From positions 1 to 56,492 of the IMG/VR virus record IMGVR_UViG_3300023284_000467: DNA of 56,492 nt; one strand, written 5' to 3'. The DNA is from a virus. Lineage: Duplodnaviria; Caudoviricetes. How positions within the stretch are numbered: the stretch's first letter is position 1; the number at the start of each line of letters is the position of its first letter. The translations under genes were made by a program, and so were the position numbers. This document shows positions 7,974-55,327 of this stretch, piece after piece. The notes under the pieces are model-generated. The model was not told where the DNA came from. It ran no database searches and saw only the letters and a program-made list of their open reading frames with translations.

Positions 7974-8171
7974 TCACCATGGCGTTACAGTCATCGGATG
8001 CTTCTCAGGAACCTGCACTCGGAGTTCAGGTGGTCCAACATGAAAAAGTAAGAGCATGTATGAGTTTCTCGACCTTCGAGCTGATCTTAGCAGCCACATT
8101 CGGTCATCCCGTGTGATTATGGAGGCCGGAGATTTCTCATTCAACCCAATGAACTTTTCTCGATAGCTCAT
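7974..8171 (-). CDS. Small hypothetical protein (MSYREKF..., 65 aa)
   Basis: TAATG coupling to the ligase stop; GGAGG SD. Confidence 0.5.
   Translation of the reverse strand: MSYREKFIGLNEKSPASIITRDDRMWLLRSARRSRNSYMLLLFHVGPPELRVQVPEKHPMTVTPW
8011..8031. repeat. Palindrome ACCTGCACTC-G-GAGTTCAGGT, copy 1 of 3
   Basis: Read directly; related copies at 12793 and 13771. Confidence 0.7.
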
Positions 8172-9115
8172 TACCTCTGATCCTCCAGAATGCAGTCTGT
8201 CTGCAGCTTGTCGTCTCTCCACTGTATGAAGCTCGCATGTCTCAATGCGCCTCCTGGCATCACGCCGTAGCACTTCACTTCCGCAACTTTTCCAACATGC
8301 TGCTCCAGATCAACTTTGTTGCCCCACTTCACTCCCTGGCCTACAGTCTTGACCTTCTCCTTTTTCGGATCGTAGTACCCATAGGTCAGTGCAGCCTCAC
8401 AGCCTTTGAACTCCTTGTTACCCGTCAAATAGCTCGGCTTGTCAGTGATCCCTGTCACTACGACGTCTACTGTCATCGTCACCTTCACCTTGAGCCAGTC
8501 ATGCGATCTGGTCGAGGTATAAGGAGCATCCGTCGCTTTGAGCATGATCCCTTCTCCGCCTTTATCCTCACACCAGAAATCCCACATCGCTTGCTTGTCT
8601 TTCCAGGCTGGAATCAACGTTACTCTCGGGTGGAAGTGGAGGCCAGCAAAGATTCGCTCTAACGCTGCCCGCCTCACCGCCCATGAATGACACCGCATAT
8701 TCCCGCCCTCTTCCATCAACAGATCAAAGACGACCACTAACTTTTCAGCCCCAGCACTCGAGCGACTATTCTTGACAGTCTTTCCACCCGTATTGGTTCC
8801 ATCTCCGGAAAATACTTCGCAGTCAAAGATCCCGCTCTCAAGCGGCCACTTCACATCAGCCAACCACTCGTGCCCTTTGTCATCAGAAATATCACGACCC
8901 GTCCTGCTGTAGCAGCCGACAGTCTTACCGCCCTTGACGTGCAACTGGAGACGACAGCCATCCAGCTTCGGCTCCGCGACAAAGCGGTCATCGGTCATTA
9001 CCTGATCGTCTTCTGGCAGGTGCGCTGCCATCGGCTTGATGAATTCCATCGGCTCCCTCCTTAACCAATTCTGATTCGCTTCAACAGCATCTGGATCTTC
9101 GGTGATCACCTTCAC
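8171..9115 (-). CDS. lig: ATP-dependent DNA ligase
   Basis: EPKLDG (motif I), FDCEV, VFDLL, EGIMLK, WLKVK, OB fold ending LRHASFIQWRDDK; second start at 9049. Confidence 0.92.
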   Translation of the reverse strand: MKVITEDPDAVEANQNWLRREPMEFIKPMAAHLPEDDQVMTDDRFVAEPKLDGCRLQLHVKGGKTVGCYSRTGRDISDDKGHEWLADVKWPLESGIFDCEVFSGDGTNTGGKTVKNSRSSAGAEKLVVVFDLLMEEGGNMRCHSWAVRRAALERIFAGLHFHPRVTLIPAWKDKQAMWDFWCEDKGGEGIMLKATDAPYTSTRSHDWLKVKVTMTVDVVVTGITDKPSYLTGNKEFKGCEAALTYGYYDPKKEKVKTVGQGVKWGNKVDLEQHVGKVAEVKCYGVMPGGALRHASFIQWRDDKLQTDCILEDQR

Positions 9116-9223
9116 CTACTTCTCCCTAGTCACTCCACGACACAGGTCGCAGATCATCCTTCGGATTTCGTCGAGAAACATCAGTCTCCGTCCACATCGC
9201 TTGCACAGGATGTAATTAGCCAT
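9116..9223 (-). CDS. 35-aa Zn-ribbon peptide, missing from the ORF track
   Basis: Hand translation MANYILCKRCGRRLMFLDEIRRMICDLCRGVTREK; its TAG abuts the ligase GTG. Confidence 0.6.
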   Translation of the reverse strand: MANYILCKRCGRRLMFLDEIRRMICDLCRGVTREK

Positions 9224-9665
9224 CTATCTGCTCCTTCTTGGATGCCCTTTTCGATAATACCGCTTCACGCAAGTCGCGAGCTCTGGCATCTTGGGTGTAA
9301 TGCAGGAACGGCCCCTTGCCCATTCGATCCGACGTAAAAGAAATACCTTTTGAGGCGAGGTATTGAGTCTCTGCACGAGATAGGTCCGTTGGCCCCTTGA
9401 CTGTCTCTGTTATTGGTTTCCCCTTTGCCTTCGCGATTAGCTCGTCTAATTTCTCCTGCTCCTTAAGTGTCATTGACAACACCTCCTGATGCTGATCTGA
9501 ATAGCATTCACAATCGGGATTCAAGCAGCTGTAGCACTCGGTACAGTTTCGATGCCATTTCAACTTGATGTGAGTATAAGGTGTCAGCTTCTGATCCTTG
9601 TGAAGACCTGCACAACCGTCGTTGCTCTTAATGAATTCGTGTTGGTTTTGTTTTTTTGTTTCCAT
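9216..9665 (-). CDS. Cys-rich early protein, possibly leaderless
   Basis: ATG 6 nt after the -10 box; alternative SD-led start MTLKEQ at 9473. Confidence 0.6.
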   Translation of the reverse strand: METKKQNQHEFIKSNDGCAGLHKDQKLTPYTHIKLKWHRNCTECYSCLNPDCECYSDQHQEVLSMTLKEQEKLDELIAKAKGKPITETVKGPTDLSRAETQYLASKGISFTSDRMGKGPFLHYTQDARARDLREAVLSKRASKKEQIDG

Positions 9666-9671
9666 ATAATA

Positions 9672-9710
9672 AACGTAACACATTTACAAAGTGTTGTCAA
9701 GTATTTTCGA
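9672..9710 (-). promoter_or_regulatory. Early sigma70-type promoter, copy 3
   Basis: TCGAAAATAC-TTGACA-17 nt-TACGTT with extended TG; GAAAT repeats upstream. Confidence 0.8.
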
Positions 9711-9735
9711 TCGCAAATTACATTTCATTTGCATT

Positions 9736-10044
9736 TCATTTCTTCGACAAGTGCTGTCTCGGCGTCTCCATGTGCGAGTTCGGCATCCCTGCATCCAACT
9801 GAGAATCCGTCAATAGGTTCTTCCCAACATCTAGCCAATACCTCAGCTCCTCCTTGGCCTCGGCAAGTTCCACCAATTCCAACCGCGCCAATCTAGCCTC
9901 CAATATGGAAATCGTGTTGCGCTGTTTCTCCTCATTGGCTTCCGAAGCAGTGAGTTGGGATTCAAGGTCAATCAACTTTGCCCTGCCAGGATGACAGCAA
10001 GAGGCGCTGTGCCAAATCTGACAGAAATCACAATGGCCACTCAT
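9736..10044 (-). CDS. Hypothetical protein, Cys/His N-terminus plus coiled coil
   Basis: MSGHCDFCQIWHSASCCHP; ATGA coupling. Confidence 0.6.
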   Translation of the reverse strand: MSGHCDFCQIWHSASCCHPGRAKLIDLESQLTASEANEEKQRNTISILEARLARLELVELAEAKEELRYWLDVGKNLLTDSQLDAGMPNSHMETPRQHLSKK

Positions 10045-10358
10045 CGCTTGCCCCTCACTGCCTGAAGTACCGCCTCGTAGGAACCTTGAACATCTATGAA
10101 GCACTCAGGCTCACCAAACCCGACGGTCGTCTCATTCTCAACTAGCTCAACACCATCTGGGGTTCGTTTGGACCCGGTCATAGATACTGGTCGTACGCAG
10201 CGAATGGAGTCACGTCTAATAGCAACTGGACGACCTCTGCTATCACGCCACTCTAACATTTCACAACCAGCGACCAATTCCGTGAGCTTCCTTATGAGCT
10301 CAGGCACCTGGCCCTCGAAGAACATCGCTCCCATACGGGTTTCATGAAATTCTGCCAT
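10041..10358 (-). CDS. Hypothetical protein
   Basis: GGAGGG SD; tightly packed with neighbours. Confidence 0.7.
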   Translation of the reverse strand: MAEFHETRMGAMFFEGQVPELIRKLTELVAGCEMLEWRDSRGRPVAIRRDSIRCVRPVSMTGSKRTPDGVELVENETTVGFGEPECFIDVQGSYEAVLQAVRGKR

Positions 10359-10369
10359 AATCCCTCCCC

Positions 10370-10540
10370 TTACAGGTGCCCGATCAGAAATCGAATCCGA
10401 TCTTCCAAGTACTCCGCTTCATCAGCCTTCATCACCTTGTTCCTCACCATGTCATCCACCTGACCTCTAATCCTAAGCTGAAGCACCTTAGCTTCATCGA
10501 CCGCTACACTCTCCAACTGGTTTCTTCTCACTTCGTCCAT
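10370..10540 (-). CDS. Small hypothetical protein
   Basis: TAAGGAGG SD before MDEVRR. Confidence 0.6.
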   Translation of the reverse strand: MDEVRRNQLESVAVDEAKVLQLRIRGQVDDMVRNKVMKADEAEYLEDRIRFLIGHL

Positions 10541-48058: not shown

Positions 48059-49489
48059 TCAGAATATCTTGCCAGTCGCCATCGTAAGCTCTTTTTTTAC
48101 AACGTCAGACAGCGTTTCCTTCAGTACGTTTATGTCCACGTCGAACGTCTCTTCCTTTTCAACAATCGGATCATCCTCCAGCAGCACCAGAACCTCATCC
48201 CCGTCTGGTTCATTTATTTCCTGCACTTCAAGTTCAGGTTTCGCTACTACTGGCTCCTGTATGGTCTCTTGTTCGGGTTCGGCCTCACGCTCTGCTTCTG
48301 CCAGAATCTCTTGAAGCGCAGTAATCGCTTTCCCGAGACGCTCACGGTTCTTCTTGGACAACACCTGGCCGGATTTCTCTACTTCCTCAATCTCACAAAG
48401 CGCACCACCGGAGGCTTCTATCACCGAGAAATGTCCATTTTCACCAGGAATTACAAAATTCTTACGACGGGAGCAACTCTCGAAATCAGACAGCGGTCGC
48501 TGGCGTAATTCAATGAAATCACCGTCTTCAGTGATCACATCGGTCTCAGCCTGCGACCACTCCAGCACCTGCTCCATCGTCCACTTACTGATCGGGAAGT
48601 ACAGACATTCGATCTCGAAAAGCTCCTCTTCCAGTGCTTCGATCTGTTCTTCAGCCTTCACTACCACTTCAGGCTCTGGGACTTTTTCAGGCTCTAGCTC
48701 GGGTTTCTTTTCAACGACTTCCTCAACCTCTTCCTCCACTTTCATACCAACGCTGATAATCTTCTTCCCATTCAACAAAAGCACCATGTTTTCTATGTCT
48801 TTGCGGGGAAGCCAGATTCCACCACCATCTTCATCAAGCACCTTCTGACACCACTCCAGATACGGCCCCGTGTTGATCCCAGCAGATCTAGCTTCTATCA
48901 ATGCTTCAGGGTTGGACGGAACCGGCACAATCGAATACTCCAGCAATTCTTGTTTGCTGAAGTCGACTCCTTTGCGCTCCTCGTTAAACACCCACTCCTT
49001 CGGCTGAAATCCAACAGACGTGGCATTCAAGAATCCACCCTTCAACATCTGATGAACCATATGCGACTTTTCGTTCATCTCTTGAGGCATGAACTCAGCG
49101 GTACTGATCAGCTTACTGCTCTTGTCCGGCCCAGCGGCCTTAACCTCCACGATTTTATGCTGGATGCTACGAGCAACGGGTGGTTCATGGTAATTGTGCG
49201 CCCACAAAACAACGGGATTCTTCTTGAAATTCTTCAGATCCCAGCCCTGCGGATCAATCGTGTCACGGTCCCGATCAACCGCTGCAGTCGAGATCGTAAA
49301 TCGAAGAATGCGGCTGGCATCAACTCCAGAGGCTTTAAAATCATCCGACAATTCGGAAGGCTCGATCTCCTCGATCGATTCCGTCTCACCGCACGGCAAG
49401 ACAACATCCTTCGAAGCTTCATTCGTGCGGGCTTGTTCACGCCAATTCTCGATGGGCATAAAAGAAACATTTACATTTTTTCTTTTCAT
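48059..49489 (-). CDS. HK97-type prohead protease with long acidic C-terminal extension
   Basis: DRDRD, NPVVLWAHN, SVGFQP, LLEYSIVPVPSNPEA; start moved to MKRK. Confidence 0.92.
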   Translation of the reverse strand: MKRKNVNVSFMPIENWREQARTNEASKDVVLPCGETESIEEIEPSELSDDFKASGVDASRILRFTISTAAVDRDRDTIDPQGWDLKNFKKNPVVLWAHNYHEPPVARSIQHKIVEVKAAGPDKSSKLISTAEFMPQEMNEKSHMVHQMLKGGFLNATSVGFQPKEWVFNEERKGVDFSKQELLEYSIVPVPSNPEALIEARSAGINTGPYLEWCQKVLDEDGGGIWLPRKDIENMVLLLNGKKIISVGMKVEEEVEEVVEKKPELEPEKVPEPEVVVKAEEQIEALEEELFEIECLYFPISKWTMEQVLEWSQAETDVITEDGDFIELRQRPLSDFESCSRRKNFVIPGENGHFSVIEASGGALCEIEEVEKSGQVLSKKNRERLGKAITALQEILAEAEREAEPEQETIQEPVVAKPELEVQEINEPDGDEVLVLLEDDPIVEKEETFDVDINVLKETLSDVVKKELTMATGKIF

Positions 49490-49498
49490 ATCCTCACC

Positions 49499-49534
49499 AA
49501 AAAAAAGCCCCACACTGGATGCAGTGCAGGGCTT
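49499..49534 (-). terminator. Intrinsic terminator
   Basis: AAGCCCTGCACTG-CATC-CAGTGTGGGGCTT, a 13-bp stem running into T8. Confidence 0.8.
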
Positions 49535-49567: not shown

Positions 49568-49759
49568 CTACAATGCTATACGCTTTTCTGTTCTGTTGTC
49601 AAACGCTTTCTGGGCACCAACCTCAACCGAGGATTCCAGGTGCTCCCTGGTATCAACAGACTTAAGTCGGCCATTGAAAAAATTCAACGTAATCTGGCCG
49701 GTTCTACCCCCTGTCATAAACTTTGTCAAGAGTTCTTTAACAAAATCGGGTAGAATCAT
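49568..49759 (-). CDS. Small protein (DUF2292-like) coupled to the portal fusion
   Basis: TGQITLNFFNG; ATGA overlap. Confidence 0.6.
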   Translation of the reverse strand: MILPDFVKELLTKFMTGGRTGQITLNFFNGRLKSVDTREHLESSVEVGAQKAFDNRTEKRIAL

Positions 49760-52700
49760 TCGCCCTCAACCGGATCGCGCTTCGCTCGCAGGATCTGAAG
49801 CCACTCTTGATTCTCTTCGACTGAATCTGGATCTTCTGTTATCACTGCAACATCCTGCTTCGTTACCCCTACCGCGTCACGCCTAGCTCGTCTCGTACTC
49901 AAAACCCTGGCCTTGAACTGCGTCTTATCGCCCAATATCACGTACTCACCCTCCCTAACGACACCAAATCCGGTCTTATACCAGCCCATAATATTTTCAG
50001 CCGGAACTTCCATCTCATAAACAAACGAACCGAAATCTCTTGCCACTTTCAACTTATCAGAGTAACTGGTCGCTGTCCCATTCTTCGCCTGGATAAACGG
50101 ATCTTGGACCAGCAACTTTGAATACTGAGAATCCCGTGGCGCTGCTGTGCCCTCGAACATCCCACGCTTCAACTTAATTTTTTTAATCTTACGAGTCTGC
50201 AATATTCGTTGCGTCACCTCATACCGAGCCTGCACCCACCGCTTTTGGATATTTATCCAATCCTGAATGTTAGCATTACTTAGTCTTCCAACAACAGGCA
50301 GACCCTGAGTCGTCCCCTGAAATTTACCCGCTTTATCTACGAGCCTCGTCAACGAAACACGCAGCGAGGCTCTGAGCCGCTCAGTCTCAATCAGTTCTCC
50401 GCCCCTCCAAAGTTGCCCGCCCCACAACTCCTGGGTCGCAGCTCGTATGGTGAATCCCATGTCTCCGCTCGGCGAACCATTCCAAGCCCTGGCATTTCTG
50501 AACACCGCAGCCGAACTATTTCGATCCGTGCCCCTCCAAATTTCAGCCATACGCAACATCGAATTGTTCGGATCTTCAGCCCGCGTCACATTTAAGGCGA
50601 TATCATCAATCTTGTCCTGTAATCGCCAGAATTGATCCTCGGTCAGACTCTTTTTCTTACTAGCCTCGGCCCATTTCTTTATCTCGTCTTTATCAAAATT
50701 GTCATCCACGTTCGTTCGAACAGCCCGATCAACACCAAATCTCCCGCCGCCAGTATCTGCTGTGATCTGCACTAGTCGCATGGCGCAACGACACATTGGA
50801 TGCAAAGGCGGATGATCTATGCCTTGAGAAAACGCTACATTTATCGGTGCTTCTTCACCATCTAACGTGAGACAATTCGGATCGGCTCGATCATCCGGCG
50901 TAGTGATCCATTTCTTGCCAGAATTCAACGGGATCAGACGGTCATCTTTAGCTTGCTTCCACAGCTCCATCTGACCACCATTCGCCGCAGCAATCATTTC
51001 CGTCCGAGCGATCGTCGTAGCTCGATCGCTGATCTTTTTACGAACAAATCCACGCATCAATCTATCTTGTCTGACACCAGTTATCCCACGGCCAGTGAGC
51101 GTTTCTCTTAGTCGCAGTCCTTGAGCTACCTGGGCCTGATTCAACCCGATCATTCCTCTGATCCGGCGAGCTGTTACATCAGGTGTCCCTCCTTGAACAA
51201 ACGATCGTTCCACAACCTCCGCAATCCCGCGCCTTGTTTCCGCCGTCACATCCCTAACCAATCTAGCTGTATTGTCCTGTATCCATTCTACGGATCTCGG
51301 GTTGACAACATCAAAAGCGAAAGTTACTTCCTGTTTGCTAACTGAGTCATCAATGGACAATTCTTCAACTTCCGGCGCGGACTCAAAAAGGACATCAATC
51401 GCACCTTCACCAGCCGCTGTAAAAGCTGCTTGCAGAACATTCTCCGCATCACCCATCTTTTCTTCAAACCCATCCACCGGGATAGCCTCTATCGCTATTT
51501 GCAGAGTCCCTGTCCCACTAAACGCATTTTCAAATGCTTGGACATCCATATCCAGGCGAGCTTGTCGAACAGCAACGAGAAACACATTCTCCATTCGACG
51601 CTGTAACTTGTTCGCTACTACATGAGTCAACTCATATGATTCATCATCGACCAGATCGAGATCGACCGGCAGCTCCTGCTTAACTTGACCATTCACCTTA
51701 ACGTTCCCATTCTTACTCTCGAGCGACTCCAGCATTGGATCAGGCGCCCTTGGCCCAATCGCCAGTCCCTCGAACTTCGTAGGCACCAGATTCATCGGAA
51801 CCATGTGAACATCACCAGCATCATTCTCCATCGGCTTGTGGCCTTGTAGCCGTCGCCACTCATCAGCACTCAAACTCCAAGGCGCTGCTTTCGCAGCATT
51901 CAACTGGTGCGCCTTATCCTCGGCAATCGGCGAAACGAAACTTAAAATCAATCTCTCATCGTATTCAGGCACAAGTCTCGTCTGCATGACCGATCGCAAA
52001 AACTCCAGTCTTGGCAGGAGCACCCATCTGGAAAATAAGAAATCAGCCGCATCAATCGTTGCACGGTTACTACTAGTCAGGATTCCAATCAGCTCCGGCG
52101 GTACACCGAACACCTGAACAATGGTGTCCCTTTCATGCTTCCGCAATTCGATCAACTGCATGTTGCGGAACTCTTGCGAAATCACCTGCACGTCGAGTTT
52201 CCGGTTCACAAAATGCGGCTTGAACGATCGCCAGAAACCCTGATGCTTGTTCAACCAGTCCTGCTCCATTCGCGCAGTTTCATCCTTCTGCAGACCATCC
52301 GCCGAAATAATCAGGTCCGGCCTCGCCTTATTGTAAAACCACGCCTTCGTATGCTTCGCCGCATATTCATCCGTCTCTAACTCATCTGCCAGTGAGCGTG
52401 CGGTTCCACTACCGCGGCCATACGGATTTTCTGGATTCGGATCACAAAACCATAGAATCTCCGTGTCGGGAATCTCGCCGCGCCATGAACGAAAGTTCAG
52501 AACAAAACTTCGTCGCTGCGGTGTTGGCGTCTCCGTTACCCAGCTCGGCGGTACAGGCCAAATCGCAACGGGAATACCGAACGCATTACGTTCCTTGATC
52601 CAGAACGCTTCGCCCACAAGATCTATATAAACCTGCGTGAGTTTCCGGGCGGACAGCCCATCTATAAACGGATTAGCACTATGCAGCAGATTCAGCAGCG

Positions 52701-53079
52701 GGTGCTCAACAACCTCTTCTAATTCCCCGTCATGTCTTTTTTCAGCCAGCAATCGCTCCCTGGTAACAATATCAGCGCGTTGCAATACCTGATTACGCTC
52801 CGGCTTACCATTCTTTCTGACAATAAACAGTTGCCACTGCACTGAAGCAATCGAATTCGCAACTTTGGTCGTCACCGCACGAAGCCAAGGCATCGTCGAA
52901 TACGCCTGCAGAAAATCTTTTGTGCCTCTATTCGGCGGTTCTCCAGTCGTACGACCAAGCGAAATGCCAGACAGCATACCGAATGCCGCTGAAGACGCAT
53001 CGCTACTAAATACACCGACCAGCGCCTTCCCTGCTAACGCCAGCCTTTGTCTAAACGAGAGCGATTCTACTTCGGCCAT
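49756..53079 (-). CDS. Portal + MuF minor head domain + ADP-ribosyltransferase-like fusion
   Basis: Portal: DLVGEAFW, FGVPPELIG. MuF: RATTIARTE, KKWIT..D, HPPLHPMCRC. ART: LKRG...SYS...AR.FG...EGEYVILG. Confidence 0.85.
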   Translation of the reverse strand: MAEVESLSFRQRLALAGKALVGVFSSDASSAAFGMLSGISLGRTTGEPPNRGTKDFLQAYSTMPWLRAVTTKVANSIASVQWQLFIVRKNGKPERNQVLQRADIVTRERLLAEKRHDGELEEVVEHPLLNLLHSANPFIDGLSARKLTQVYIDLVGEAFWIKERNAFGIPVAIWPVPPSWVTETPTPQRRSFVLNFRSWRGEIPDTEILWFCDPNPENPYGRGSGTARSLADELETDEYAAKHTKAWFYNKARPDLIISADGLQKDETARMEQDWLNKHQGFWRSFKPHFVNRKLDVQVISQEFRNMQLIELRKHERDTIVQVFGVPPELIGILTSSNRATIDAADFLFSRWVLLPRLEFLRSVMQTRLVPEYDERLILSFVSPIAEDKAHQLNAAKAAPWSLSADEWRRLQGHKPMENDAGDVHMVPMNLVPTKFEGLAIGPRAPDPMLESLESKNGNVKVNGQVKQELPVDLDLVDDESYELTHVVANKLQRRMENVFLVAVRQARLDMDVQAFENAFSGTGTLQIAIEAIPVDGFEEKMGDAENVLQAAFTAAGEGAIDVLFESAPEVEELSIDDSVSKQEVTFAFDVVNPRSVEWIQDNTARLVRDVTAETRRGIAEVVERSFVQGGTPDVTARRIRGMIGLNQAQVAQGLRLRETLTGRGITGVRQDRLMRGFVRKKISDRATTIARTEMIAAANGGQMELWKQAKDDRLIPLNSGKKWITTPDDRADPNCLTLDGEEAPINVAFSQGIDHPPLHPMCRCAMRLVQITADTGGGRFGVDRAVRTNVDDNFDKDEIKKWAEASKKKSLTEDQFWRLQDKIDDIALNVTRAEDPNNSMLRMAEIWRGTDRNSSAAVFRNARAWNGSPSGDMGFTIRAATQELWGGQLWRGGELIETERLRASLRVSLTRLVDKAGKFQGTTQGLPVVGRLSNANIQDWINIQKRWVQARYEVTQRILQTRKIKKIKLKRGMFEGTAAPRDSQYSKLLVQDPFIQAKNGTATSYSDKLKVARDFGSFVYEMEVPAENIMGWYKTGFGVVREGEYVILGDKTQFKARVLSTRRARRDAVGVTKQDVAVITEDPDSVEENQEWLQILRAKRDPVEGE

Positions 53080-53112: not shown

Positions 53113-54951
53113 CTACCAAGTTTCTGCCGACGGCAACACACTCTCTCCGAATCGCGAATCGACACACTGTATCACTACCCCTGCAACAGCATCAGTCACA
53201 CCCTTATCTCCACCGGACGGATGATCAACCTTGCACTTCAATCGATCAAGCTCCAGTCTAACAGCCTCGTCCATAAACGGCTTATACTGATACAAGTTCA
53301 ATCGATTCTCGTTGATCGCAGCTTTCAGCTCCAGATACGGTTTCATATCAGCATCAACAGACAACGTGTACGATTCTATCCCGCGTTTACGCATCTCTTG
53401 CTGACCTTCAGCCGACTGGTAGCTATCGAACGTGACCTGCTTCATTCGGAAGCCGTATTTCTGAAGCTGATACAGAATCCCGCGCACTCCCTCCAGATCG
53501 ATTTCTCCACCAATCGGTGGCACAATTCTTAGCATCAAATCTATATGGATCAGCGGCACTTGCTCCTCATACAATTCACCATCGGGGTTGCGCCGCTCGA
53601 TCGCGATAACTCCGCCAAGACAACCTACGGCCAAACCGCACTCATCATTGCTAAGCGCGTAGTCAATATGTGCGTACCGCCACACCTCAGAAAACATCTT
53701 CGGATGCCATTTATCAGTCCTCTTATCAAGCTCAGCCAGACGCTCAGGCATCAGTTTGACCCCATCTTGGAGCGTCGTTTCCAGCGACGTAAACGGATGC
53801 TCCCTCAAACGATCAACGCAGTCATGCACACGAGTAAAATCCGTCAAAAACGGATTCATCGTCGACGTCGGCCTGCCAGCTATGTCTCTGATCGCAGCAT
53901 CAAGATCCTTCTCGAAGTCCCGCTTGAATTCAATCGGAACATCTACCACCTCGCCCTCAATCGTTGACTGTTCCTCATCACCAGTCAGCAACCGCGAGCG
54001 ACCATACATCCCGCCGATCTCAACTCGGAACGTCTCTCCAGAAAATACCTGATTCTTGGCATCCCACAGCGTATGAGACCTAGCAAAAATCTTGTCATCC
54101 GTCTTCGCTTCGACCTTCTTTTTCGCTGTAAAGTCGTCCGGATACTGAGACGATGACAACGCCAACACCTTACCCGGAATATACCCGCCCGCCATTAAAA
54201 ACCGGGACTTGATACGCCTACTGATCGTCTCATACAGTCGTTTCGGCGTATCGTACAGATCATTCACAGAACGGACCCGCGTCGAGCCTCGGATCACAGG
54301 CATGAAATTTATTTCATCAATACAACCCCCGTAAATATTCAAACCCAGAGCCGACGTATCGAGCGAGGCTAACGGGAGAACCTCTATGTTCTTGGGGAAT
54401 CTAAGCTCGATGATAATGTACGGATCGGGCTGGAACTGTTCCCTAAAATACGGCGACGCATCGATTCTGGCCTTGATCTCACCGAATACGACTTTCTTCG
54501 CCAGCGTCTTATTCACCGACTGGTTGACCAGATAAATTTTCGACCCCGGCATCATGCCATAAAACGCCTGCGGATCAGCGATACAACTCAGCCGATAAAT
54601 CATGTACGAGAACGCCAGGGACACGAACGTCGATTTTCCCCATCCGATAGCTCCGTCAATCACCCCTTCGACATAATCGCCCGTATCAAACAACTCGATC
54701 AAATCATCTCTGATCACGTCCCTGATGTTCTCAACATCTCCCAGGTAGTACGGATCTTCCAGAAACATCTTCATCGTCACAGGTTCCCGCTCGTATCCGA
54801 CCGGAGCCTGAATCTTTTTCAGCGTCTCACTATCACCTTGTTGCAGGAACTCCCCAACGATCTGTTCGGCAAGGTCACGAGCATCTTCGCTCGTAAGCTG
54901 GCTGATCATATGGTACAGTTCCTTCTGCTCGTCAGCGTCAAGAGATACCAT
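53113..54951 (-). CDS. terL: Terminase large subunit
   Basis: Walker A GAIGWGKS, Walker B CIDE, nuclease HIDYALSND, TFDSYQS, DHP...KGVTDAVAG; start likely MVSLD. Confidence 0.9.
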   Translation of the reverse strand: MVSLDADEQKELYHMISQLTSEDARDLAEQIVGEFLQQGDSETLKKIQAPVGYEREPVTMKMFLEDPYYLGDVENIRDVIRDDLIELFDTGDYVEGVIDGAIGWGKSTFVSLAFSYMIYRLSCIADPQAFYGMMPGSKIYLVNQSVNKTLAKKVVFGEIKARIDASPYFREQFQPDPYIIIELRFPKNIEVLPLASLDTSALGLNIYGGCIDEINFMPVIRGSTRVRSVNDLYDTPKRLYETISRRIKSRFLMAGGYIPGKVLALSSSQYPDDFTAKKKVEAKTDDKIFARSHTLWDAKNQVFSGETFRVEIGGMYGRSRLLTGDEEQSTIEGEVVDVPIEFKRDFEKDLDAAIRDIAGRPTSTMNPFLTDFTRVHDCVDRLREHPFTSLETTLQDGVKLMPERLAELDKRTDKWHPKMFSEVWRYAHIDYALSNDECGLAVGCLGGVIAIERRNPDGELYEEQVPLIHIDLMLRIVPPIGGEIDLEGVRGILYQLQKYGFRMKQVTFDSYQSAEGQQEMRKRGIESYTLSVDADMKPYLELKAAINENRLNLYQYKPFMDEAVRLELDRLKCKVDHPSGGDKGVTDAVAGVVIQCVDSRFGESVLPSAETW

Positions 54952-55327
54952 ACGTAATCCCAACACCCCCAGTAAACACTGCATCATCAGCCACGCCAGA
55001 TACCGTGGTCACCGATGTCGCGTCAGTGCCATTACTTGTACTTATTGTGATCGTGTCACCGACATCGATGATCGTCGGTTCAAAGATAATCGGCTGATAC
55101 TCCTGGTACGGCTGGACAGGCGTAAGCGGTGGATCAAATCTGATCACCGGATCGACTGGCGGCGGGTCAATCCAGATCTCCGAATCGACCATCGACTCCC
55201 CCACGATATCTGACAGTCCCTGAATCAATTCCCGATCCTTCTTCTGCGCAGGACTCTCCTCGGGCTGATGGGCCTCCTCCTCGATCCTTTTCAGAAAATC
55301 AAGCAACAACCACGGGTTCATTTTCAT
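54938..55327 (-). CDS. Hypothetical Pro-rich acidic protein
   Basis: AGGAGG SD; abuts upstream stop. Confidence 0.6.
   Translation of the reverse strand: MKMNPWLLLDFLKRIEEEAHQPEESPAQKKDRELIQGLSDIVGESMVDSEIWIDPPPVDPVIRFDPPLTPVQPYQEYQPIIFEPTIIDVGDTITISTSNGTDATSVTTVSGVADDAVFTGGVGITYGIS

Follow-up and report, generated by a model that had tools for sequence, protein, structure and literature searches.

The DNA analysed here, called the window throughout, spans the whole of a linear virus record in IMG/VR (IMGVR_UViG_3300023284_000467; Duplodnaviria, Caudoviricetes), 56,492 bp long, whose completeness is estimated at 57%. It encodes an ATP-dependent DNA ligase whose open reading frame (ORF) has two plausible starts, an upstream GTG and an internal ATG, and the 22 codons between these two starts form a leader that resembles part of the C-terminal tail of another protein of the same genome, a fusion of portal, MuF and ADP-ribosyltransferase (ART) domains. 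The ligase locus contains the following features.

8171..9115, minus strand: long ligase ORF, 314 aa, starting at GTG 9115..9113
8171..9049, minus strand: ATP-dependent DNA ligase proper, 292 aa plus stop (PF01068, E 7.5e-19; phrog_114, E 9.7e-41)
9050..9115, minus strand: leader of 22 codons, MKVITEDPDAVEANQNWLRREP, in the ligase frame, from the upstream TAG to the internal ATG
9062..9109, minus strand: motif core VITEDPDAVEANQNWL, ligase codons 3-18
9047..9063, minus strand: internal start, made up of TAAGGAGG (9063..9056), 6 nt and ATG 9049..9047; duplex -12.6 kcal/mol
9122..9127, minus strand: Shine-Dalgarno-like site AGGGAG of the GTG; duplex -8.8 kcal/mol, 5-nt spacer
9113..9118, minus strand: TAG/GTG junction, at which TAG 9118..9116 of a 35-aa ORF abuts the GTG of the long form in the same frame
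9116..9223, minus strand: 35-aa ORF of the CxxC...CxxC (zinc-ribbon-like) type, in the same frame as the ligase with one TAG between

The two starts of the ligase gene

The ligase scored 68.7 bits against PF01068 (cut-off 26.2), and its match to phrog_114 spans residues 14-308. The residues K50, D52 and G53 of the KxDG adenylation motif are invariant in all 11 aligned ligases. The profile of the C-terminal OB-fold, PF04679, reached 21.5 bits, under its cut-off of 27.5, and the structural model has an all-beta C-terminal part with high predicted per-residue confidence (pLDDT). AlphaFold2 modelled residues 1-20 of the 314-aa form with pLDDT values of 42-44 and a low-confidence helix at residues 8-18, and the chain becomes confident from about residue 23. 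In this predicted structure the leader is no part of the ligase fold.

Shine-Dalgarno strength was expressed as duplex energy against a generic anti-Shine-Dalgarno sequence, taken from general knowledge, and spacers were counted from the duplex end. The site of ATG 9049 (spacer of 5 nt by this count) ties the strongest among 46 genes of the window. Judged by duplex energies of -12.6 and -8.8 kcal/mol against a median of -6.1, ATG 9049 is the canonical ligase start, and GTG 9115 is usable and positioned for termination-reinitiation. Two in-frame starts 22 codons apart, each with its own ribosome-binding site, are therefore found here, in agreement with an earlier first-pass annotation that had proposed two plausible starts. 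A scan of positions 8000..10500 returned one promoter-like site, away from the leader, and no terminator-like site, and the predicted RNA fold across the leader is unremarkable (z = -0.32).

The leader and the tail of the portal-MuF-ART fusion

The protein that carries the matching peptide lies in the late region, and the relevant features are listed below.

49756..53079, minus strand: portal-MuF-ART fusion protein, 1107 aa (PF04860, E 9e-42; PF04233, E 2.5e-10; PF07357 DRAT, E 0.0039, scoring below the curated cut-off)
49798..49845, minus strand: resident motif copy VITEDPDSVEENQEWL, fusion residues 1079-1094, inside the post-ART tail
49777..49821, minus strand: predicted tail helix VEENQEWLQILRAKR, residues 1087-1101 (query 278-292), block pLDDT ~81
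49568..49759, minus strand: 63-aa ORF whose ATG overlaps the fusion TGA (ATGA), without a PHROG match

The ligase copy VITEDPDAVEANQNWL and the portal copy VITEDPDSVEENQEWL agree in 13 of their 16 residues and in 37 of 48 bases. Third codon positions hold seven of the 11 base differences, and five identical residues (I, T, V, Q and L) are encoded by different codons, as the first-pass annotation had noted; its coordinates and sequences, the 13/16 match, the internal ATG with a 6-nt spacer and the GTG abutting the TAG were likewise found to be correct. It had placed the match at the C-terminus of the portal toxin, which is right for the tail but not for the very end of the protein, since 13 residues follow positions 1079-1094 of 1107. 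Shuffling the 18,594-aa proteome 3000 times gave no match to either peptide better than 9/16, and when 11 random base changes were simulated, at least 13 identical residues were kept in 0.03% of 20,000 runs. Counting by NG86 gave 6 synonymous differences over 9.5 sites and 5 non-synonymous differences over 38.5 sites (pS 0.63, pN 0.13; Fisher p = 0.0045). Purifying selection on the peptide dominated the divergence of the two copies.

The same substitution pattern would be equally expected if the tail had diverged while functional elsewhere and had then moved to its present place recently. When 5-6 of the 11 changes were taken as neutral on the leader lineage, at least 13/16 residues survived in 16-36% of simulations, and for this reason the pattern does not demonstrate selection on the ligase copy's own account. 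The earlier claim of selection on the peptide thus holds for constraint during the divergence of the copies, and selection on the ligase copy itself is not shown.

In the fusion protein, the MuF domain (PF04233) occupies residues 619-767 and is followed by about 300 aa with an ART-like domain. The DRAT match (PF07357) of 16.8 bits fell short of the cut-off of 25, which is exceeded by the homologues P0047 (83 bits), P0022 (53.8 bits) and P0098 (36.7 bits). In an alignment of 39 sequences, R972, S1005 and E1043/E1045 (query R163, S196 and E234/E236) occupy invariant or nearly invariant columns; we take these to be the catalytic Arg, Ser (S-x-S) and E-x-E of the family. An exhaustive HMMER search with fusion residues 810-1107 (a 298-aa query) returned 101 proteins at E ≤ 0.001, most of which match the core only, at query positions ~135-250. 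The AlphaFold2 model of the ART part has a confident core with weak matches to ART folds in the PDB, none of them at E ≤ 0.001, and the linker preceding the tail helix (query 260-272) has pLDDT values below 50. The closest relative, P0020, is ~60% identical to the fusion overall, and its ART part is far more diverged (34%) than portal and MuF. With portal, MuF and an R-S-ExE ART in one chain, each portal subunit would bear an effector unless the chain is cleaved.

According to passages of published studies, MuF and portal-fused effectors are held to be packaged and injected (PMC5512222, PMC5576092); in MuF toxin genes the immunity gene usually lies directly downstream, and the toxin domains require neutralisation in the producer cell (passages of PMC5576092). 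Two of the three attributes that define a MuF polymorphic toxin (PMC5576092) are seen in the fusion described here, namely a MuF domain with an extension of at least 100 aa that includes a toxin-type domain, and a small (<150 aa) ORF directly downstream; the third is a temperate phage or prophage as the source of the gene. By its position only, the 63-aa ORF is a candidate immunity gene.

We defined the tail motif informally as h-x-h-(D/E)-x-D ... (N/E)(Q/A)x-W-(L/I), located 20-85 aa past the ExE strand of an ART module. A regular expression found it after 26 of 122 DRAT-like ART modules, in 13 of 102 proteins, so that the motif recurs in ART homologues. The portal copy fits this definition, and the ligase leader fits its sequence part while failing its context, as no ART precedes it. 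Ten homologue matches aligned into the tail, seven of which were retrieved. P0020 is a 950-aa portal-MuF-ART fragment that ends in ...VQIKEDPDRLQQNQDWLRTLAGER, and P0033 is an 82-aa fragment that ends in ...VPVVSEDPDTLDENQNWLRILDREREGV; common to both, at the extreme C-terminus, is E-D-P-D-x-h-x-x-N-Q-x-W-L. Distant proteins have h-x-h-D-x-D...N-(A/Q)-(D/N)-W-(L/I/T/P)-(K/R). In multi-module proteins the motif follows each ART module; in P0101 it stands between an ART and a topoisomerase IB domain, in P0032 it precedes a GNAT domain, and it adjoins an ART module in all family instances seen. A profile was built from 21 distant motif instances, leaving out the window tail, P0020 and P0033, and its top match in the six-frame translation of the window was the leader (10.1 bits, E 0.047). 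By its sequence, then, the leader is a member of the post-ART tail family.

No Pfam model covers the tail in the fusion or in the homologues that were scanned. The available passages of PMC5576092 and PMC5512222 contain no description of a conserved post-ART tail, and the word 'linker' occurs 0 times in PMC5512222. Seven of the homologues (P0019, P0032, P0042, P0047, P0048, P0065 and P0101) have several modules, with up to 11 stretches matched to the ART, and in them the motif often runs on as ...W-x-K-T-x-S-W-D-L-P. Separate Gly/His-rich linkers also recur in the multi-module proteins, e.g. HPGRHNQKDHG, GGPGSGNHGH and WDExxHPRxPAG..GGxF. A degenerate motif copy had been suspected at the MuF-ART junction (~residues 785-805) and was dropped, as the motif profile did not detect it.

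The edges of the homology were then compared with the gene boundaries. Downstream, WLQIL, WLRIL and WLRTL of the tails correspond to WLRRE in the leader, the family pattern being W-L-x-x-(L/I/V). The R-R-E codons of the leader are the AGGAGG of the ligase ribosome-binding site, and because the homology stops where R-R-E/AGGAGG begins, the breakpoint is placed at the edge of the ligase cassette. Upstream, the linker ahead of the motif in ART tails aligns with RGVTREK, the last seven codons of the 35-aa ORF (9119..9139). Alignments by tblastn with three tails cross the TAG, sharing RG....K with P0020, EK with P0033 and GVT with the resident tail, and the TAG column is Ala in both P0020 and P0033. 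The homology may extend upstream across the TAG, for which these alignments are suggestive only. The 35-aa ORF has a good Shine-Dalgarno site, and its start overlaps the stop of a Cys-rich 155-aa ORF (9216..9683).

Distribution of the leader, the motif and the ligase

The first-pass annotation had named absence from homologues among the observations that would speak against it, and on the ligase side this is what is seen. The leader is present in 0 of 10 homologues (40-49% and 32-34% identical; protein sequences alone were compared). Five of these begin one or two residues ahead of the F-[ILV]-x-P-[MQ] that follows the internal ATG, i.e. near the equivalent of that start; two have unrelated extensions and three are shorter. 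A word-seeded profile search for the narrow motif in 5.8 billion proteins gave 1423 candidates, which reduced to four proteins, the three ART tails and this ligase, each of them a source of the query. The exact degenerate DNA pattern had 0 matches in each of the viral, metagenome and genome contig sets. A relaxed pattern matched three IMG/VR contigs (L091:825-862, L092:8737-8774 and L093:6075-6112), which belong to one unrelated portal family, phrog_12082 (L092 protein, E 3.9e-173). The segment concerned, ...IDDRDAVE(V/T)NQ(K/R)WFN..., near residues 60-70, is ~10/16 like the leader, with most of these positions fixed by the pattern itself. As ~6 matches are expected by a rough estimate and three were found, this likeness is treated as probably due to chance.

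The ligase was found in none of 15 portal-related virus records, seven of which are at least 90% complete, in a search whose positive control recovered both known ligases. On this ground the ligase is an accessory cassette. In the GenBank phage collection, the ligase region had no counterpart at the DNA level and the ART part none at the protein level. When IMG/VR was searched, the ligase retrieved one distant ligase (L001), without leader, and the ART part had no match. The flanks of 80 portal-related loci contained neither the ART tail nor the leader, the best ART match there having E 0.015 (L036/L037). A word-seeded search with fusion residues 850-1107 returned the self-match only, and a metagenome scan with P0020 found seven distant MuF relatives, P0020's own contig not being among them.

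A weaker resemblance to the motif was found in a second head protein of the late region, whose other genes are listed with it.

53113..54987: terminase
48059..49513: prohead protease/scaffold protein, 484 residues, S78 type
48491..48538, minus strand: partial motif copy VITEDGDFIELRQRPL, protease/scaffold residues 326-341 of 484, 9/16 residues
46852..48027: major head protein

Proteome shuffles reach at least nine matching residues in 7 of 3000 cases (P = 0.0023). The VITEDGDFIELRQRPL site is not conserved in the protease homologues of related loci, among which only 3 of 53 tblastn rows span it. The protease of L047 aligns EDAAFLRFRQ at this site, which suggests that the VITEDGDFIELRQRPL segment is part of a separate domain. 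Within the window there are three occurrences of the GATC-containing 8-bp palindrome GTGATCAC, two of which lie within the ligase-leader and protease-site copies, where they code for V-I-T.

The ligase is situated 40 kb from the late region, amid small genes, and seven of eight neighbours that were scanned have no PHROG match. Over the whole window, 63 of 77 heuristic ORFs are on the minus strand, and the stop codons of the 77 are TAA (33), TGA (27) and TAG (17). No tRNA gene of any kind was found in the window, and its composition profile shows no visible cassette boundary.

Origin and possible role of the leader

The explanation that we favour, giving it about an even chance, is that a displaced ART-tail coding fragment lies at a cassette junction and that the ligase is made mainly from ATG 9049; here we infer both the history of recombination and the share of each start. 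The 66 nt from the stop of the 35-aa ORF to the ligase ribosome-binding site would be displaced coding DNA, derived from the C-terminal tail of a DRAT-like ART effector module of the kind that ends the portal-MuF-ART protein of this phage. The fragment would be no shorter than 57 nt; probably it extends past the TAG, for a length of ~81 nt. The tail itself would be a conserved module-boundary element composed of a variable linker, h-x-h-(D/E)-x-D and an amphipathic helix (N/E)-(Q/A)-x-W-(L/I). Recombination at a gene boundary would have joined the ligase cassette, equipped with its own Shine-Dalgarno site and ATG, to this fragment, with the breakpoint directly 5' of TAAGGAGG. Most of the ligase would then start at ATG 9049, as in the homologues. 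Ribosomes that end at the TAG may re-initiate at GTG 9115 and produce a minor form with a flexible 22-aa tag; such a form is possible because the fragment is in frame and begins with Val/GTG codons beside the upstream stop. The tag would be a truncated tail that lacks the conserved hydrophobic position after W-L-x-x, and no function would be required of it.

Remnants of mosaic junctions are established at phage gene boundaries, and the locus resembles them in having a short foreign coding stretch between cassettes, a breakpoint at a ribosome-binding site and a ligase that is absent from relatives. Several observations nevertheless weigh against a displaced fragment. Unlike an ordinary remnant, this one is intact, in frame, start-capable and nearer to the family consensus than the resident copy, and thus better kept than expected for a scar. 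Nine columns (E, D, P, D, N, Q, W, L and R) are invariant in the four close sequences, and the leader agrees in every one; it also has an N and an R that are shared with P0033 (D and R in P0020), where the resident portal copy has E and Q. Polarised by P0020 and P0033, the portal lineage changed more amino acids than the leader, so that a long neutral decay of the leader is unlikely; a long-neutral relic should have decayed, and the leader has not. In the search with the distant-instance profile the resident tail came third, at E 2.4 against 0.047 for the leader. P0047, as called, carries the motif at residues 3-16 as well as at its very end, so that the tail motif may also be an N-terminal feature. 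The Shine-Dalgarno duplex of GTG 9115 is better than the median of the 46 genes, and the conjunction of an intact in-frame fragment, a start-capable codon right after a stop and an above-median Shine-Dalgarno site is by estimate a coincidence of roughly one in three to one in ten. The third partial copy, being in a head protein, hints at a head-related meaning. As to the extension across the TAG, the rough estimate is p ~0.01, weak alone, and the likeness of the 35-aa ORF to the 60 residues ahead of the resident motif did not rise above shuffles (p = 0.30).

The main rival, a reading that we hold possible though doubtful, is that the phage deliberately makes two ligase isoforms, the long one bearing the boundary motif of ART modules as a functional tag. 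The motif would be recognised either by a host factor or by a shared partner at the stage of head assembly, of processing or of ejection, and some of the ligase would travel or act with the injected effector; a capsid-targeting tag that packages the ligase, proposed in the first-pass annotation, is one version of this. A usable Shine-Dalgarno site at both starts and a TAG/GTG junction that fits translational coupling agree with it, as do the retention of every family-invariant residue and the rank of the leader as the best match of the window to the distant-instance profile. The position of the motif near the N-terminus of P0047 and ahead of topoisomerase IB (P0101) and GNAT (P0032) domains, the partial copy in the prohead protease/scaffold protein and the packaging and injection reported for portal-fused effectors (passages of PMC5512222, PMC5576092) point the same way. 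The leader is, however, missing from all ten ligase homologues, and protein and DNA-pattern searches found the narrow motif in no further protein. The hydrophobic residue after W-L-x-x has been overwritten by the Shine-Dalgarno site, the motif stands beside an ART module in every family instance seen, which the ligase does not, and protease homologues do not keep the third copy. As to the capsid-targeting version, no other motif-bearing cargo protein was found, and the portal side has no need of a targeting signal because the resident ART is already covalently fused to portal and MuF. A more specific proposal, which we regard as unlikely, makes the post-ART tail a portable signal that marks the boundary of virion-delivered effector modules and that was grafted onto an accessory ligase by way of the GTG; a tagged fraction would be packaged and injected, e.g. 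for sealing or circularising the incoming genome, and the ATG form would serve replication.

It is improbable that zinc ribbon, motif linker and ligase are the parts of a single 350-codon ORF, a zinc-finger ligase with a polyvalent-type junction, broken by the TAG or occasionally read through. The three segments do share one frame of 350 aa with one TAG, the tail alignments cross that TAG at an Ala column, and the ligase homologue P0006 has a ~90-aa zinc-finger-like N-terminal extension. Its finger (CxC...CxH) is however unrelated to the CxxC...CxxC ribbon, the ligase has a very strong start of its own, and no tRNA was found in the window; moreover the TAG is an ordinary stop here, since 17 of the 77 heuristic ORFs end with it and the long genes have none in frame. 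Very improbable, in our view, is a shared cleavage site of the prohead protease, e.g. after I-T-E, that would trim the ART tail and let the protease/scaffold protein process itself, the ligase copy being incidental or marking a substrate. In long minus-strand frames VITED has exactly three occurrences, two of them in head proteins, the third site has P = 0.0023 against proteome shuffles, and I-T-E fits the L/I-x-E rule by which the T4 prohead protease cleaves; the protease of this phage, on the other hand, is of the S78 type, a cut after ligase residue 6 serves no evident purpose, the wider family keeps D-x-D and N-x-x-W rather than I-T-E, and the protease homologues do not conserve the site.

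We give very little credence to the other proposal of the first-pass annotation, by which the ART would be inhibited by its own tail, and early in infection the leader of the ligase would supply that peptide again in trans to silence the injected enzyme. The tail is predicted to be a separate helix on a flexible linker, and MuF toxin domains do need neutralisation in the producer cell (passages of PMC5576092). Against this, a dedicated small ORF overlaps the fusion stop, at the usual place of an immunity gene, the leader is a truncated helix, and the motif behaves as a boundary element in multi-module proteins, including the N-terminus of P0047 before any ART; nothing ties the ligase gene to early expression. 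Chance, or an element at the level of DNA or RNA that two gene junctions have in common, could be seen in the position of both copies just upstream of a gene start and in the threefold occurrence of GTGATCAC. Its probability is negligible: the differences fall mostly in third positions (7/11) with 13/16 residues kept, no shuffle passes 9/16, the fold of the RNA is unremarkable with no promoter- or terminator-like site at the leader, and the peptide motif is present in unrelated ART proteins as well. Chance or a nucleic-acid element is effectively refuted by the substitution pattern, the shuffles and the distant-instance profile.

The arrangement can be set beside several known systems. It resembles MuF polymorphic toxins and portal-MuF effector fusions in its succession of portal, MuF, a toxin-type extension of ~300 aa and a small ORF, and differs in that a copy of the tail stands here on an unrelated and unfused enzyme gene; the conserved post-ART tail does not appear in the available passages on those systems (PMC5576092, PMC5512222). 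With DRAT-like R-S-E ARTs (PF07357) it shares R972, S1005 and E1043-x-E1045 on conserved columns, although its own domain, at 16.8 bits, is below the cut-off of 25. The common ARTs of polyvalent proteins are of the H-Y-D type, and the ART of this phage differs from them in being R-S-E; the packaging and injection of Alt are mentioned as well (passages of PMC5512222). The genome contains one N-terminal instance of the motif.

In T4, short N-terminal capsid targeting peptides direct internal proteins and Alt into the prohead, where the prohead protease removes them. The likeness to these lies in a short N-terminal peptide common to otherwise unrelated proteins, which is the idea behind the capsid-targeting version; unlike them, the reference copy is here C-terminal on a portal-fused protein, there is one candidate cargo, and the protease is S78 rather than T4 gp21. 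In-frame alternative starts that yield two isoforms are known for bacterial and phage proteins, and the ligase gene is like these in its two in-frame starts 22 codons apart, each with a Shine-Dalgarno-like site.

These results bear on the question of how MuF and portal effector modules, held to be injected with the phage DNA, are delimited, processed or released. Among DRAT-like ART modules, a subset is flanked by a short conserved element, now delimited, for which there is no Pfam model; in multi-domain relatives it is found at protein ends, separating modules, or ahead of a topoisomerase IB or GNAT domain. The ligase copy is a natural graft of this element or else a recombination scar that can be dated. 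If it is a scar, the case is one of ordinary mosaicism among phages, and annotation of the ligase should begin at ATG 9049. If it is a true graft, the comparison of ligase, a harmless enzyme, with and without the tag would give a simple handle on the function of the element, a natural transplant that identifies it as a signal.

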